DNA of 14,665 nt from a virus (IMGVR_UViG_2713896799_000003:1-14665); one strand, 5' to 3'. Positions 1 through 14,665 are shown, counted from the stretch's first letter. A program made the numbers and translations. Notes: generated from the letters alone by a model not told the origin.

Positions 1-751
1 AACGGTGAAAGTCTGCCGGTTGATCCGGCGGCATATCCGGAGGACTGGGATTTGTTGCTGACGGATGTGTTCCATAAAACATGGCCGCTGGCTTCTGATC
101 CGGATGTGCGCATGCGTCTGATGGCCATGGCGGTGGATACGGGAGGGGAAGCCGGGGTGACAGATAACGCCTATCGTTTCTGGCGTCGTTGCCGGAGTGA
201 CGGACTGGGCAACAGGGTGTTTCTGTTCAAGGGGGATGGTCTTCGCCGTGACAGGCTGATTAACCGTACCTTCCGGATAATACCGGCAGAAGTGCCCGCC
301 GTGCCAGAGCCAGTGGCGATGTCGCGCTGTGGCTGGTTCAGACGGATGCGTTTAAGGACCGTGTAAATAATGCCCTGTGGCGTGACACACCGGGGCCGAA
401 CTATATCCACTTTCCGACTGGCTGGGGCGTGGTTTTACGATGAGCTGACCTATGAAGAGCGCGGCAGTGACGGAAAATGGAAAACCGGGCAGGGGCGCTA
501 ACGAGGCGTTTGACCTGCTGGTTTATGCGGATGCGCTTGCCGTTCTGCATGGTTACGAAAAGATCCGCTGGCCCTCCGCACCGGACTGGGCACAGCGGGA
601 AACGTGGCTCGTCTTCCCGCAGGAGCGTTCTGGTGAAACGGCATCCCCGGAACTGACGGCCGGGGCAGAAAAACGCCGTCGCCGGAAGAAAAAACTGCGG
701 ACGGAGCGTGCGGAAGATAATCCATGGATAACATCAGGAGGCTGGTTGTGA
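1..751 (+). pseudogene. Terminase large subunit (lambda GpA family), 3' portion entering from upstream; frame interrupted by at least 3 small indels (possibly technical)
   Basis: Frame 1 is open from base 1 to the stop at 364-366 (NGESLPVDPAAYPEDWDLLLTDVFHKTWPLASDPDVRMRLMAMAVDTGG...NRVFLFKGDG). The protein-like reading then moves to frame 0 (about 310-440: GDVALWLVQTDAFKDRVNNALWRDTPGPNYIHFPTGWGVV), back to frame 1 (436-498: YDELTYEERGSDGKWKTGQG) and finally frame 2 (to stop 749-751: ANEAFDLLVYADALAVLHGYEKIRW...NPWITSGGWL). Motifs resemble what I recall of lambda gpA C-terminal region (WDTGG, HFP, NEALD..VYA..A). Stop at 749-751 overlaps the next gene's GTG as GTGA, like the lambda A/W junction. 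Confidence 0.55.
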
Positions 752-958
752 GCACAGAAGAAGCCAGAGAAATGATACAGCGTACCGTGAAGCGGAAATG
801 GCCGTACTGGAGGGGAAGTCTGTCACCTTCAACGGACAGCAACTGACGCTGGAAAGCCTTTCTCAGATCCGCGCCGGACGTCAGGAGTGGGAACGCAGGC
901 TTGCCGCGATGGTGAGCCGCAGGCGGGAAAACCGGGATTTAAAACTGGCGAGTTTTAA
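748..958 (+). pseudogene. gpW-like head-tail joining protein; two frame changes (possibly technical)
   Basis: GTG at 748 is preceded by AGGAGG at 735-740. Frame 1 gives VSTEEARE..., frame 0 gives ..AYREAEMAVLEGKSVTFNGQQLTLESLSQIRAGRQEWERRLAAMVSRRR, and frame 2 gives GKPGFKTGEF with stop at 956-958. The composite is about 70 aa and follows the gpW pattern as I recall it (lambda W ends ..QRRRGPAGFYV). Position immediately after terminase fits. Confidence 0.45.
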
Positions 959-1033
959 TGGCAATTATGATGATGTGATAGGCGTGTCTCTCCAGGCTGG
1001 AAAGCGGCCAGACTGCGTTCAAGGGCGTTAATC

Positions 1034-2458
1034 ATGGCCTATGAGGCGGTGAAACCGACCCGGACACATAAAGCCCGGCGTGAAAATCGATCTGCTGATC
1101 AACTCAGTAAATATGGTGCGGTTTCCCTGCGGGAGCAGGCCCGTTTTCTGGATATCAATCATGACCTGGTGATTGGTGTGTTTGACAAGCTTGAAGAGCG
1201 GGTGATTGGTGCCAGAGGAATTACTGTGGAGCCTCAGCCATTACGAAAAAACGGGGAAATGGCGGCAGAGCTGGCTGCGGATATCCGCCGGTTGTGGGCT
1301 GAATGGTCCGTGAGTCCGGATGTGACAGGGCAGTATACCCGTCCCGTGCTTGAGCGTTTACTGCTGCGGACCTGGCTGCGGGATGGTGAAGTGTTTGCGC
1401 AGATGGTCAGTGGTGCGGGAAACGGTCTGGAACGGACGGCGGGAGTGCCATTCTGGCTTGAAGCGATGGAGCCGGATTTTGTTCCCATGCACAGTGATGA
1501 ATCCGCCGGGCTGAATCAGGGGGTTTTTCTTGATGAGTGGGGCAGACCGAAAAAATATCTGGTTTATAAAAATTATCCGGTCAGTGGTCGGCAGAGTGAT
1601 ACGAAAGAAATCGCCGCCGGAAAAATGATCCACCTGAAGTTCACTCGTCGTCTGCATCAGACGCGAGGCTCATCCATGTTATCGGGGGTGCTGATGCGGA
1701 TCAGTGCCCTTAAGGAGTATGAGGATGCGGAACTGACAGCGGCGCGTATTGCTGCGGCGCTGGGACTGTATATCCGTAAAGGTGACGGACAGGACTATGA
1801 AGATCCGGGGATCAAAGAAACCGAGCGGGAAGTCCATATCACCCCGGGGATTATTTATGACGATTTGCGCAAGGGCGAGGATATCGGCATGGTCAAATCC
1901 GATCGTCCCAATCCCAACCTTGAAACTTTCCGCAACGGCCAGTTGCGTGCAGTGGCAGCTGGCAGTCGTCTGAGTTTTTCCAGTGCGGCGCGTAACTATA
2001 ACGGCACCTACAGCGCCCAGCGGCAGGAGCTGGTCGAGTCCACGGATGGTTACCTGATCCTGCAGGACTGTTTTATTGGTGCGGTAACCCGCCCGGTGTA
2101 CCGGACATGGCTGAATATGGTGGTTGCGGCAGGTCTGCTGAAAATTCCGGCGGATGTGGAGATGAAGACGCTATATAACGCGACGTATTCCGGTCCGGTG
2201 ATGCCGTGGATCGACCCGGTTAAGGAGGCTGAAGCCTGGCGGATACAGATCCGGGGTGGTGCCGCGACGGAATCCGACTGGATCCGCGCAGGCGGGCGCA
2301 ACCCGGATGAGGTCAAACGTCGCCGTAAGGCTGAAACTGAGGAAAATCGCAGGCTGGGGCTGGTCTTTGATACTGACCCCGCTAACGACAAAGGAGGCAA
2401 CAGTGCCGGAACTGAACAACAGCGTCAGCAGGCCACCGACAGCCAGCATGAAGAATAA
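1034..2458 (+). CDS. Portal protein (lambda-type portal family), 474 aa
   Basis: Uninterrupted 474-codon ORF in the expected position between W and the protease/capsid gene; length and composition typical of lambda-family portals. The exact start is uncertain: ATG 1034 has a weak AAGGG 8 nt upstream, and an ATG at 958 overlaps the W stop but is in a different frame. Confidence 0.8.
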   Translation: MAYEAVKPTRTHKARRENRSADQLSKYGAVSLREQARFLDINHDLVIGVFDKLEERVIGARGITVEPQPLRKNGEMAAELAADIRRLWAEWSVSPDVTGQYTRPVLERLLLRTWLRDGEVFAQMVSGAGNGLERTAGVPFWLEAMEPDFVPMHSDESAGLNQGVFLDEWGRPKKYLVYKNYPVSGRQSDTKEIAAGKMIHLKFTRRLHQTRGSSMLSGVLMRISALKEYEDAELTAARIAAALGLYIRKGDGQDYEDPGIKETEREVHITPGIIYDDLRKGEDIGMVKSDRPNPNLETFRNGQLRAVAAGSRLSFSSAARNYNGTYSAQRQELVESTDGYLILQDCFIGAVTRPVYRTWLNMVVAAGLLKIPADVEMKTLYNATYSGPVMPWIDPVKEAEAWRIQIRGGAATESDWIRAGGRNPDEVKRRRKAETEENRRLGLVFDTDPANDKGGNSAGTEQQRQQATDSQHEE

Positions 2459-12705: not shown

Positions 12706-12723
12706 TGCAAAATGTTTTATGTG

Positions 12724-12744
12724 AAACCGCCTGCGGGCGGTTTT
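12724..12744 (+). other. GC-rich hairpin plus T-tract between I and J (possible attenuator or RNA stability element)
   Basis: AAACCGCC-TGCG-GGCGGTTT inverted repeat (12724-12743) followed by TTTTGTCGTTT, about 20 nt upstream of the J ATG. Confidence 0.3.
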
Positions 12745-12765
12745 GTCGTTTATGGAGCGTGAGGA

Positions 12766-14665
12766 ATGGGTAAAGGAAGCAGTAAGGGGCATACCCCGCG
12801 TGAAGCGAAGGACAACCTGAAGTCCACGCAGTTGCTGAGTGTGATCGATGCCATCAGCGAAGGGCCGATTGAAGGTCCGGTGGATGGATTAAAAAGCGTG
12901 CTGCTGAACAGTACGCCGGTGCTGGACACTGAGGGGAATACCAACATCTCCGGTGTCACGGTGGTGTTCCGGGCAGGTGAGCAGGAGCAGGCACCGCCGG
13001 AGGGATTTGAATCCTCCGGCTCCGAGACGGTGCTGGGTACGGAAGTGAAATACGACACGCCGATCACCCGGACCATCACGTCTGCAAACATCGACCGTTG
13101 CGCTTTACCTTCGGTGTGCAGGCACTGGTGGAAACCACCTCAAAGGGGGACCGGAATCCGTCGGAAGTCCGCCTGCTGGTTCAGATCAGCGTAACGGTGG
13201 CTGGGTGACGGAAAAAGACATCACCATTAAGGGCAAAACCACCTCGCAGTATCTGGCCTCGGTGGGTGTGGTAACCTGCCGCCGCGCCCGTTCAACATCC
13301 GGATGCGCAGGATGACGCCGGACAGCACCACAGACCAGCTGCAGAACAAAACGCTCTGGTCGTCATACACCGAAATCATCGATGTGAAACAGTGCTACCC
13401 GAACACGGCACTGGTCGGCGTGCAGGTGGATTCGGAGCAGTTCGGGCAGCAGGTGAGTCGTAATTATCATCTTCGCGGGCGCATTCTGCAGGTGCCGTCG
13501 AAATTATAACCCGCAGACGCGGCAATACAGCGGTATCTGGGACGGAACGTTTAAACCGGCATACAGCAACAACATGGCCTGGTGTCTGTGGGATATGCTG
13601 ACCCATCCGCGCTACGGCATGGGGAAACGTCTTGGTGCGGCGGATGTGGATAAATGGGCGCTGTATGTCATCGGCCAGAATTGCGACCAGTCGGTGCCGG
13701 ACGGCTTTGGCGGCACGGAGCCGCGCATCACCTGTAATGCTTACCTGACCACACAGCGTAAGGCGTGGGATGTGCTCAGTGATTTCTGCTCGGCGATGCG
13801 CTGTATGCCGGTATGGAACGGGCAGACGCTGACGTTCGTGCAGGACCGACCGTCGGATAAGGTGTGGACCTATAACCGCAGTAATGTGGTGATGCCGGAT
13901 GATGGCGCGCCGTTCCGCTACAGCTTCAGCGCCCTGAAGGACCGCCATAATGCCGTTGAGGTGAACTGGATTGACCCGGATAACGGCTGGGAGACGGCAA
14001 CAGAGCTTGTGGAGGACACGCAGGCCATTGCCCGTTACGGTCGTAACGTCACGAAGATGGATGCCTTTGGCTGTACCAGCCGGGGGCAGGCGCACCGCGC
14101 CGGGCTGTGGCTGATTAAAACGGAACTGCTGGAAACGCAGACCGTGGACTTCAGCGTGGGTGCCGAAGGGCTTCGCCATGTACCGGGCGATGTCATTGAA
14201 ATCTGCGATGATGACTATGCCGGTATCAGCACCGGTGGTCGTGTGCTGGCGGTGAACAGCCAGACCCGGACGCTGACGCTCGACCGTGAAATCACGCTGC
14301 CATCCTCCGGCACCACGCTGATAAGCCTGGTTGACGGAAATGGCAATCCGGTCAGCGTGGAGGTTCAGTCCGTCACCGACGGCATGAAGGTGAAAGTGAG
14401 CCGTGTTCCTGACGGCGTTGCGAATACAGCGTGTGGGGGCTGAAGCTGCCGACGTGCGCCAGCGCCTGTTCCGCTGCGTGAGTATCCGTGAGAACGACGA
14501 CGGCACGTATGCCATCACTGCCGTGCAGCATGTACCGGAAAAAGAAGCCATCGTGGATAACGGGGCGCACTTTGACGGCGACCAGAGCGGCACGGTGAAT
14601 GGTGTCACCGCCAGCGGTGCAGCACCTGACCGCGAAGTCACCGCAGACAGCGGGGAATATCAGGT
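12766..14665 (+). pseudogene. J: Tail tip / host specificity protein J, 5' portion (continues beyond window); at least 7 frame disruptions (possibly technical)
   Basis: MGKGSSKGHTPREAKDNLKSTQLLSVIDAISEGPIEGPVDGLKSVLLNSTPVLDTEGNTNISGVTVVFRAGEQEQ... matches the lambda gpJ N-terminus. gpJ-like sequence continues in shifting frames: RFTFGVQALVETTSKGDRNPSEVRLLVQI (frame 0 from about 13095), NGGWVTEKDITIKGKTTSQYLAS (frame 2), MRRMTPDSTTDQLQNKTLWSSYTEIIDVKQCYPNTALVGVQVDSEQFG (frame 1), then MAWCLWDMLTHPRYGMGKRLGAADVDKW...VKVSRVPDGVA (frame 2, 13574-14443), with further shifts to the window end. Confidence 0.85.

Follow-up and report, generated by a model that had tools for sequence, protein, structure and literature searches.

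Small indels clustered at both ends of a lambda-like prophage contig of Escherichia coli IH57218 are very probably consensus errors of an unpolished PacBio assembly

Gene organization of the contig

The stretch of DNA analyzed here (the window, 14,665 bp) is the entire contig LFZJ01000008.1 of GCA_001264215.1, a draft genome of E. coli IH57218, in the forward orientation (1..14665; locus L012 is window 1-12458). The number of prophage regions predicted in this strain is 17. Annotations and Pfam matches of identical or near-identical loci, together with Pfam matches on fragments of the window itself, revealed the canonical terminase-to-J gene order and domains of a lambda-like siphovirus module, with all genes on the plus strand. 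An earlier note, made from the nucleotide sequence alone, had counted frame changes gene by gene at both flanks. Indels were placed by pairwise alignment to three complete-genome relatives and to much closer relatives; their sizes are given in bases, a minus sign marking deletions and a plus sign insertions.

The window opens at about codon 457 of the 707-codon terminase large subunit gene (terL), and the remaining 3′ part occupies 1..751. A fragment at 52-366 matches Pfam GpA_nuclease, and four deletions were found where at least three frame changes had been claimed. A small head gene of 70 aa in the position of lambda W (748..958) has lost bases at 781, 924 and 951 and gained one at 941, that is, the two frame changes already reported plus a compensating pair. 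The portal protein gene (Phage_portal_2, 958..2458) had been described as free of indels. This proved incorrect, as deletions 967 and 986 fall within its first 10 codons, the remainder being intact. The portal gene call in this contig is a truncated one of 474 aa; since the gene starts at ~958 and both deletions shift the frame, the ATG at 1034 is merely the first start codon of the frame that remains.

The genes that follow are intact. They encode a fusion of a ClpP-like prohead protease and the major capsid protein (2448..4427; the exact protein is present in 156 index blocks), two small head proteins (4515..5115; DUF2190/Phage_cement_2 and Gifsy-2 family), tail proteins Z, U and V, the last with a Big_2 domain (5118..6909), and tail assembly chaperones G and T (6930..7792). 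A candidate G/GT programmed -1 frameshift site, recognized by its sequence, is the slippery heptamer G GGA AAG at 7337-7343, in the G frame and 16 nt 5′ of the G stop codon.

Further downstream the interruptions resume. The tape measure gene H (7782..10393) has lost a single G from a G5 run at 10037, and the minor tail gene M (10390..10718) has one deletion, at 10569. Two frame-changing events each were found in the tail tip gene K (C40 peptidase, 11399..12137) and the tail assembly gene I (12134..12705); the counts for H, M, K and I are identical to those given earlier. The minor tail gene L (10718..11393) has the five frame-changing events claimed and one in-frame event. The first 1.9 kb of J, encoding the tail tip and host specificity protein (12766..14665), runs off the contig end and has eight frame-changing events and one in-frame event, at least seven having been counted before. 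When the indels are undone, every gene is restored with zero stop codons, which bears out the observation that the sequence between the indels is clean and free of stop-creating substitutions. No Pfam match was obtained for the long antisense ORFs at the 3′ end (421, 236 and 185 aa), which were dismissed as by-products of GC-rich coding sequence. The underlying biology is probably that of an ordinary, intact lambda-like prophage head-tail module, and an identical one is found in many E. coli.

Distribution and types of indels

About 42 small indels were found, at 272-986 and 10037-14632, and none in the intervening 9,050 bp. Long intact ORFs were listed only within 1034-10154, with fragments on both sides. 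If ~42-44 events were uniformly spread, an empty core of 9,050 bp would be expected with P ~5e-19. Confinement of frame-disrupting indels to both flanks, as first noticed, is thus upheld. An indel-free core had been placed at 1034-10037; it does exist, though its true limits are 987-10036.

The 5′ block (272..986) contains ten events, nine deletions and one insertion, and no substitution: 272 (-1), 413 (-1), 428 (-1), 479 (-2), 781 (-1), 924 (-1), 941 (+1), 951 (-1), 967 (-1) and 986 (-1). The core (987..10036) is 100% identical to CP055941.1, with no indel and no substitution. The 3′ block (10037..14632) shows ~32 indel events and, relative to the same genome, 35 substitutions, every one of them beyond 10785. 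The indels here are 10037 (-1), 10569 (-1), an irregular loss of 19 bases across 10736-10758, 10771 (-1), 10885 (-4), 11127 (-1), 11233 (+2), 11398 (-5, in the L-K spacer), 11616 (-1), 11886-11895 (net -4), 12636-12643 (net +1), 12668 (-2), 13097 (-1), 13185 (-1), 13264-13271 (net -1), 13444 (-3), 13501 (+1), 14421 (-1), 14454 (-1), 14607 (-2) and 14632 (-1). The 5′ end has an event density of 1.0-1.4%, the 3′ end one of ~0.7%.

Single-base events comprise 26 deletions and five insertions, and 23 of these 31 lie in runs of 2-5 identical bases, against a background of 46% (P = 0.0015). The earlier statement that indels sit in short homopolymers is therefore borne out, the runs being very short. 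The multi-base events at the 3′ end (-16/-19, -5, -4, -4 and -3) are less typical of simple homopolymer miscalls and to that extent speak against an artefact. At 11398, the 5-bp difference is intergenic and common to two intact relatives and is therefore a natural allele; other multi-base events at hypervariable 3′ spots may be partly natural. Contig positions 1-271 are error-free, where ~3.8 events would be expected at the local rate (P ~0.02); this stands against a pure end-of-contig coverage gradient, which would predict some errors there.

Comparison with related prophages

Alignment of window 1-10736 with the nearest relative, CP055941.1, showed 12 indel events and no substitution, and window 1-9169 has no substitution relative to an Illumina-type contig (L009). 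All 35 substitutions relative to CP055941.1 are downstream of 10,742, in L, K, I and J, and 34 of them are alleles known from other prophage tails. Differences away from indels are ~29 synonymous and 9 non-synonymous. These 35 remaining substitutions are natural alleles, mostly synonymous.

Two intact E. coli lambdoid modules (CP055941.1 and JAOQLX010000001.1; loci L005 and L004) share with the window 100% identity over 987-10036 and the order terL, W-like gene, portal, ClpP-capsid fusion, two small head genes and Z-U-V-G/T-H-M-L-K-I-J. Only its end indels, and the 35 substitutions of natural appearance in L, K, I and J, set the window apart from them. Among the places listed, all relatives with an identical capsid-fusion protein have intact terL (707 aa), W (70 aa) and portal (500 aa) genes; in L004 and L005, which extend to the tail region, the genes for the tape measure protein (870 aa), M, L, K, I and J are likewise intact. 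All neighbouring genes are intact in independent short-read assemblies with the identical core. Products specific to the frameshifted H, J and I genes have no record elsewhere in the searched collection of billions of predicted proteins. The closest named phage is Escherichia phage 1720a-02 (KF030445), at 87.7% identity; Stx-converting phages are 86-87% identical to the window.

Two further observations were considered and discarded. A Logan contig, the only other contig with a truncated portal call, has the same 474-aa call and seemed to offer independent support for the frameshift, but its alignment shows intact sequence at 986. Many alignments ending at '1-987' suggested a mosaic boundary at the last 5′ indel. 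O157-type prophages, however, stay 95-98% identical well past 1000, and the alignments end at 987 because the query was cut at 1000, beside the 986 deletion.

Origin of the indels

The accession LFZJ00000000 is assigned to IH57218, which was sequenced with PacBio RS P4/C2 continuous long reads (CLR) alone and assembled into 17 contigs by HGAP pre-assembly, PacBioToCA correction and Celera Assembler 7 (CA 7.0) consensus (PMC4551483). The genome paper makes no mention of Quiver or short-read polishing, the word 'Quiver' being absent from it, and describes gaps and one misassembly relative to an optical map (PMC4551483). The errors of this platform are dominated by indels, and the pipeline as described has no final polishing step. 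As the window is the whole of LFZJ01000008.1, both indel flanks are contig ends; this is the central point for the interpretation, and one that the earlier note did not have at its disposal. The 3′ segment is in addition multi-copy in most E. coli genomes.

Judged from sequence comparison, the indels are very probably (roughly 0.93) consensus errors at the ends of a small unpolished PacBio contig rather than mutations, and the finding would then be an ordinary one. The earlier note had also put consensus error first, and the indels are end-located, indel-only in type, homopolymer-biased, found in no other assembly and reversible to whole genes. This distribution could be explained if the contig middle was covered by several corrected reads, giving perfect sequence, while the two ends were supported by a single corrected read, or very few, with an accuracy of ~99%. 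Residual errors at such poorly supported ends would be nearly all small indels, chiefly bases dropped in short runs. The accuracy of single corrected CLR reads, as pre-assembled by HGAP, fits the event densities of 1.0-1.4% and ~0.7%.

Errors of this kind are known from PacBio-only assemblies, in which 86% of E. coli indels lie in homopolymers, with G/C deletion and A/T insertion errors (ARAMIS; PMC8574707). The window is likewise indel-only, deletion-biased and concentrated in short homopolymers, and as in those CLR assemblies predicted proteins are truncated while the downstream sequence stays intact and protein-like (PMC8574707). In the present case the errors are not scattered over the genome but packed at 0.7-1.4% into two contig ends. 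We attribute the packing to an unpolished draft, poorly supported ends and, at the 3′ end, probable repeat contamination. Caution over apparent frameshifts in SMRT assemblies has been advised before (PMC4853030).

Repeats among co-resident lambdoid prophages had been proposed as the cause. This idea fits the 3′ end in part and the 5′ end poorly. The M-L-K-I-J region occurs at a median of three places per E. coli genome (maximum 14), and of nine 3′ single-base deletions, six hit alignment columns at which prophage types differ, against a background of 7.7% (P = 1.4e-5). Here the consensus probably incorporated reads from other co-resident lambdoid tail modules, which would lead to drop-outs where the copies differ. 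The 5′ segment is usually single-copy (median one place per genome) and its deletions are all on columns invariant among eight reference prophages, so that low support at the contig end explains this block better. The 3′ indels were not significantly concentrated in allele-set switch intervals (10 of 22 versus 32% expected, P = 0.13). An argument that indel-free 3′ stretches must be chimeric, since none of 5,426 complete genomes matches them perfectly, was withdrawn because the genuine CP055941.1 haplotype, used as a control, was equally matchless. Repeat mixing in the consensus is hence hinted at for the 3′ end only.

Alternative explanations

The earlier note had offered as its alternative a very recently inactivated prophage. 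On this view, many small frameshifting mutations would have struck the terminase gene, W, the start of the portal gene and the tail-tip genes of the IH57218 element and spared the head and tail-tube genes. Clean fragments without nonsense codons would also be expected of a very young array of pseudogenes, the annotation of related prophages in complete genomes includes single genes with a frameshift or interruption, and the estIa frameshift in the sister assembly IH53473, the sole one that the authors tested by Sanger sequencing, turned out to be a real single-base deletion. Not all frameshifts in these drafts are errors, given that confirmation. Nevertheless, we regard real inactivation as very unlikely. 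Spontaneous indels in E. coli are about tenfold rarer than base substitutions in mutation-accumulation studies, and at a ~10:1 substitution excess the 12 indels and no substitutions that separate 10.7 kb of the window from its nearest relative would have P ~1e-12. The two indel blocks coincide with the two ends of the contig, the assembly is made of unpolished CLR, and the frameshift products were found in no other assembly among billions of predicted proteins. In genuine prophage decay, IS elements insert, large segments are lost, nonsense and missense substitutions accumulate, and related strains have lesions in common. The defective lambdoid prophages of E. coli K-12 and O157:H7 resemble the window in having many interrupted structural genes, but none of these signs of decay was seen here: repaired genes have no stops, there are no substitutions before 10,742, the lesions are private, and the window is colinear with intact relatives. 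Some 40 independent hits in one module with neither an IS element nor a large deletion would be unlike known decay. Were the indels real, a mutational process confined to indels would have acted locally, at the junction of terminase and portal and in the tail-tip genes, or such a copy would be carried by a real subpopulation of cells; packaging and adsorption functions would be inactivated, and capsid and tail tube spared. To either we give very little credence.

A misjoin or collapse is a sub-mechanism of the artefact explanation and no biological alternative. Here the contig from ~10,737 onwards would be another co-resident tail module or a blend, and its indels by-products of merging instead of low coverage. 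The position of all 35 substitutions after 10,742 agrees with this, as do the 34 alleles shared with other tail modules, 40 allele-set switches in 3.65 kb, the enrichment of deletions on polymorphic columns and the location of the largest losses, where L begins and in K, at hypervariable sites. Most E. coli genomes carry several copies of the tail region, short-read contigs of relatives end inside the tape measure gene, and one misassembly is on record for this genome (PMC4551483). A natural third haplotype, however, accounts for the substitutions equally well, the lack of a perfect match extends to a genuine haplotype, the indels are not significantly concentrated at allele switches, and the 5′ block, with its deletions all on invariant columns, is left unexplained. 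As the main cause, a misjoin or collapse therefore has only a slight chance of being correct.

Consequences for use of the assembly

Taken as consensus errors at contig ends, the indels matter only as a warning about data quality. Pseudogene counts, prophage completeness estimates and protein databases that use GCA_001264215.1 would take over dozens of spurious frameshifts from its contig ends, and the sister assemblies LFZH and LFZI probably carry the same problem. In genome scans, clustered frameshifts should be checked for whole-contig status and sequencing platform before they are read biologically. One such false product is already on deposit as KOA27451.1, a truncated "capsid protein".

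Location of frame-disrupting indels

In the ORF map of the window, long forward ORFs are confined to 1034–10154; outside this interval the coding sequence is present as fragments distributed over all three forward frames. Alignment with each of three complete-genome relatives (94–97% identity) recovered the same window-specific indels: eight at 272–986, about 22 at 10039–14632 and none in between. Gap-tolerant realignment converted several mismatch clusters into pairs of compensating indels, such as the loss of a G from GGGG at 924 together with an additional A in AAA at 941. 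This raised the number of events to about 42, with 10 at the 5′ end and the other 32 or so at the 3′ end. If these were spread evenly, the probability of an empty core of 9,050 bp would be about 5e-19.

The per-gene indel counts of the earlier note were matched by our own tally except for the portal gene, which the note had placed in the indel-free core. This gene starts near 958 and carries deletions at 967 and 986, within its first ten codons, and the clean core is therefore 987–10036. A 5-bp difference at 11398, inside the L–K spacer, is common to two intact relatives and is therefore a natural allele. It belongs to a natural length polymorphism (window 11395–11398), ATTTT being missing in the window and in two related loci, L002 and L003. 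In the latter (strain 06-00048) a 2.4-kb IS21-family element, ISEc10, is inserted at the same spot of the spacer (L003 ~12430–14841).

The gene cluster itself is an ordinary lambda-like head-tail module, with the canonical gene order and domain content, and many E. coli carry prophages with an identical core. The canonical lambda-type −1 slippery heptamer predicted for G/GT, G GGA AAG, occupies 7337–7343, in frame with G and 16 nt ahead of its stop codon (7359–7361). The T frame is open to 7792, and the slippery site is intact and within the clean core.

Comparison with related prophages

The collection lists the intact protease-capsid fusion protein, in identical form, in 156 index blocks. 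Every capsid-fusion locus shown has complete terL (707 aa), W-like (70 aa) and portal (500 aa) genes; L004 and L005, the loci extending into the tail region, also have complete genes for the tape measure (870 aa) and for M, L, K, I and J. Exact look-up in the collection found no record elsewhere of the products that exist only through the frameshifts (truncated tape measure with out-of-frame tail, I and J fragments). Only one further contig, L013, has an identical truncated portal call, and its sequence is intact at site 986. Finished-genome relatives carry isolated annotated lesions, one or two per module versus about 40 in the window: an internal stop in terL of L003, frameshifts in the capsid fusion and L genes of L016 (O111:H8 2009C-3675), and a truncated gene T in the O157 and O111 prophages (L014, L016).

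In E. coli, spontaneous substitutions are about ten times commoner than indels. Comparison with the nearest relative, CP055941.1, showed no substitutions over 1–10,741, once the cluster at 928–941 is read as an indel pair, and 12 indel events in 1–10,736. No substitutions were found over 1–9169 against an independent short-read contig (L009) either. Twelve indels with no substitutions are thus unlike spontaneous mutation and are the signature of a consensus derived from few error-corrected PacBio reads.

Origin of the contig and error profile

The window is the entire 14,665-bp contig LFZJ01000008.1 of assembly GCA_001264215.1, matching it base for base over the part retrieved; both flanks are therefore contig ends. 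The contig was identified through an exact protein match to the N-terminally truncated portal ORF. Its accession is assigned to E. coli IH57218, a Shiga-toxin/enterotoxin hybrid of serotype O2:H27 and ST10 that was sequenced solely on PacBio RS with P4/C2 chemistry (PMC4551483). Continuous long reads were passed through HGAP pre-assembly, PacBioToCA correction and Celera Assembler 7 to yield 17 contigs, and the methods describe neither Quiver nor short-read polishing (PMC4551483). The same paper reports gaps and one misassembly in this genome, revealed by the optical map, and 17 PHAST prophage regions, 12 of them scored intact (PMC4551483).

Single-base events comprise 26 deletions and five insertions, and 23 of the 31 fall in runs of 2–5 identical bases (background 46%, P = 0.0015). 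This profile agrees with published surveys of PacBio-only assemblies, in which 86% of E. coli indels were in homopolymers and both G/C deletion and A/T insertion errors occurred (PMC8574707). A SMRT study advises judging the integrity of downstream sequence before believing a frameshift (PMC4853030); in the window the sequence downstream of each frameshift is always intact. When indels were undone according to the nearest relative, all genes were restored with no stop codons.

Assembly error or inactivation

Overall, we consider the indels to be assembly artefacts with a probability of roughly 93%, and are slightly more confident still if repeat collapse, also an artefact, is included. What is established is the contig identity, the platform, a pipeline without described polishing, the indel-only pattern, the homopolymer bias, the private lesions and the full restoration on repair; together with the contig-end location, these uphold consensus error, the leading interpretation of the earlier note. 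The middle of the contig would have been built from several corrected reads, giving perfect sequence, and the ends probably from one or very few reads of ~99% accuracy, leaving residual errors. Event densities of 1.0–1.4% at the 5′ end and ~0.7% at the 3′ end fit such support. Three points speak against an artefact: the first 271 bases contain no errors, although a gradient of coverage alone would be expected to produce a few; several of the 3′ events involve more than one base; and the only frameshift that the authors Sanger-tested in a sister assembly proved real. Even so, a real recent inactivation of the prophage is very improbable. A decaying prophage would be expected to show IS insertions, loss of large segments, nonsense and missense substitutions and damage common to relatives, and none of these was found in the window by alignments, repair or look-ups against relatives; the pattern is therefore one of residual long-read consensus errors and not of decay. 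The frameshifts were correctly observed and are not a biological feature.

The earlier note had also proposed a repeat among co-resident lambdoid prophages as the cause. At the 5′ end, every deletion falls on a column that does not vary among eight references, and genomes usually carry the segment once (median 1 place per genome), so that block is better explained by low read support where the contig ends. In comparisons with L014, L015 and L016, window 1–750 (the 3′ half of terL) keeps 99–100% identity between prophage types that have otherwise diverged (O157, O111, 06-00048), and identity falls to 94–98% past ~750. The 5′ contig end therefore sits inside a near-identical repeat, a plausible reason for the break.

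At the 3′ end there are hints of repeat mixing, and some paralogous tail-module reads may have entered the consensus there only. Six of nine 3′ single-base deletions fall exactly on columns varying between prophage types (background 7.7%, P = 1.4e-5), the biggest losses are in hypervariable spots, the tail segment is typically multi-copy in E. coli (median 3, maximum 14 places per genome), and short-read contigs of relatives end inside the tape-measure gene. Against blending, indels do not cluster significantly at allele-set switches (P = 0.13). The 3′ end could be either a blend of co-resident copies or a genuine third haplotype. Stretches of the window without a perfect match had suggested chimerism; this was rejected as uninformative, since the genuine CP055941.1 haplotype likewise lacked one when 5,426 complete genomes were searched.

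All 35 substitutions relative to CP055941.1 lie from 10,742 onward, and 34 are alleles already found in other prophage tail modules. Differences away from indels are about 29 synonymous and about 9 non-synonymous. The 3′ substitutions are natural, selection-filtered alleles, not decay. Of 182 informative sites between 10742 and 14206, the window agrees with the CP055941.1 haplotype at 153 and with the N96 type at 28, switching 40 times within 3.65 kb; the switches reflect either natural mosaicism of the tail genes on a fine scale or blending in the consensus.

Short-read assemblies with the identical core break in the tape-measure gene at window 8067 (L011), 8602 (L006, L008, L010), 9169 (L009) and 10218 (L007), so a repeat shared with other prophages starts there in those genomes. 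These breakpoints are 0–2 kb upstream of the start of the 3′ errors, or just past it for L007.

In practice, caution is needed with GCA_001264215.1 and sister assemblies. The truncated portal (1034–2458) is deposited in GenBank as KOA27451.1 and labelled 'capsid protein', so the draft has passed on an erroneous truncation as well as an incorrect name to public protein databases. In L013, a 1.7-kb contig from Logan SRR25639095, bases 1–28 do not align to the window and homology begins at window 969, shortly after the portal gene starts. This points to a junction in the assembly graph or a mosaic breakpoint where W meets portal in the sample concerned.
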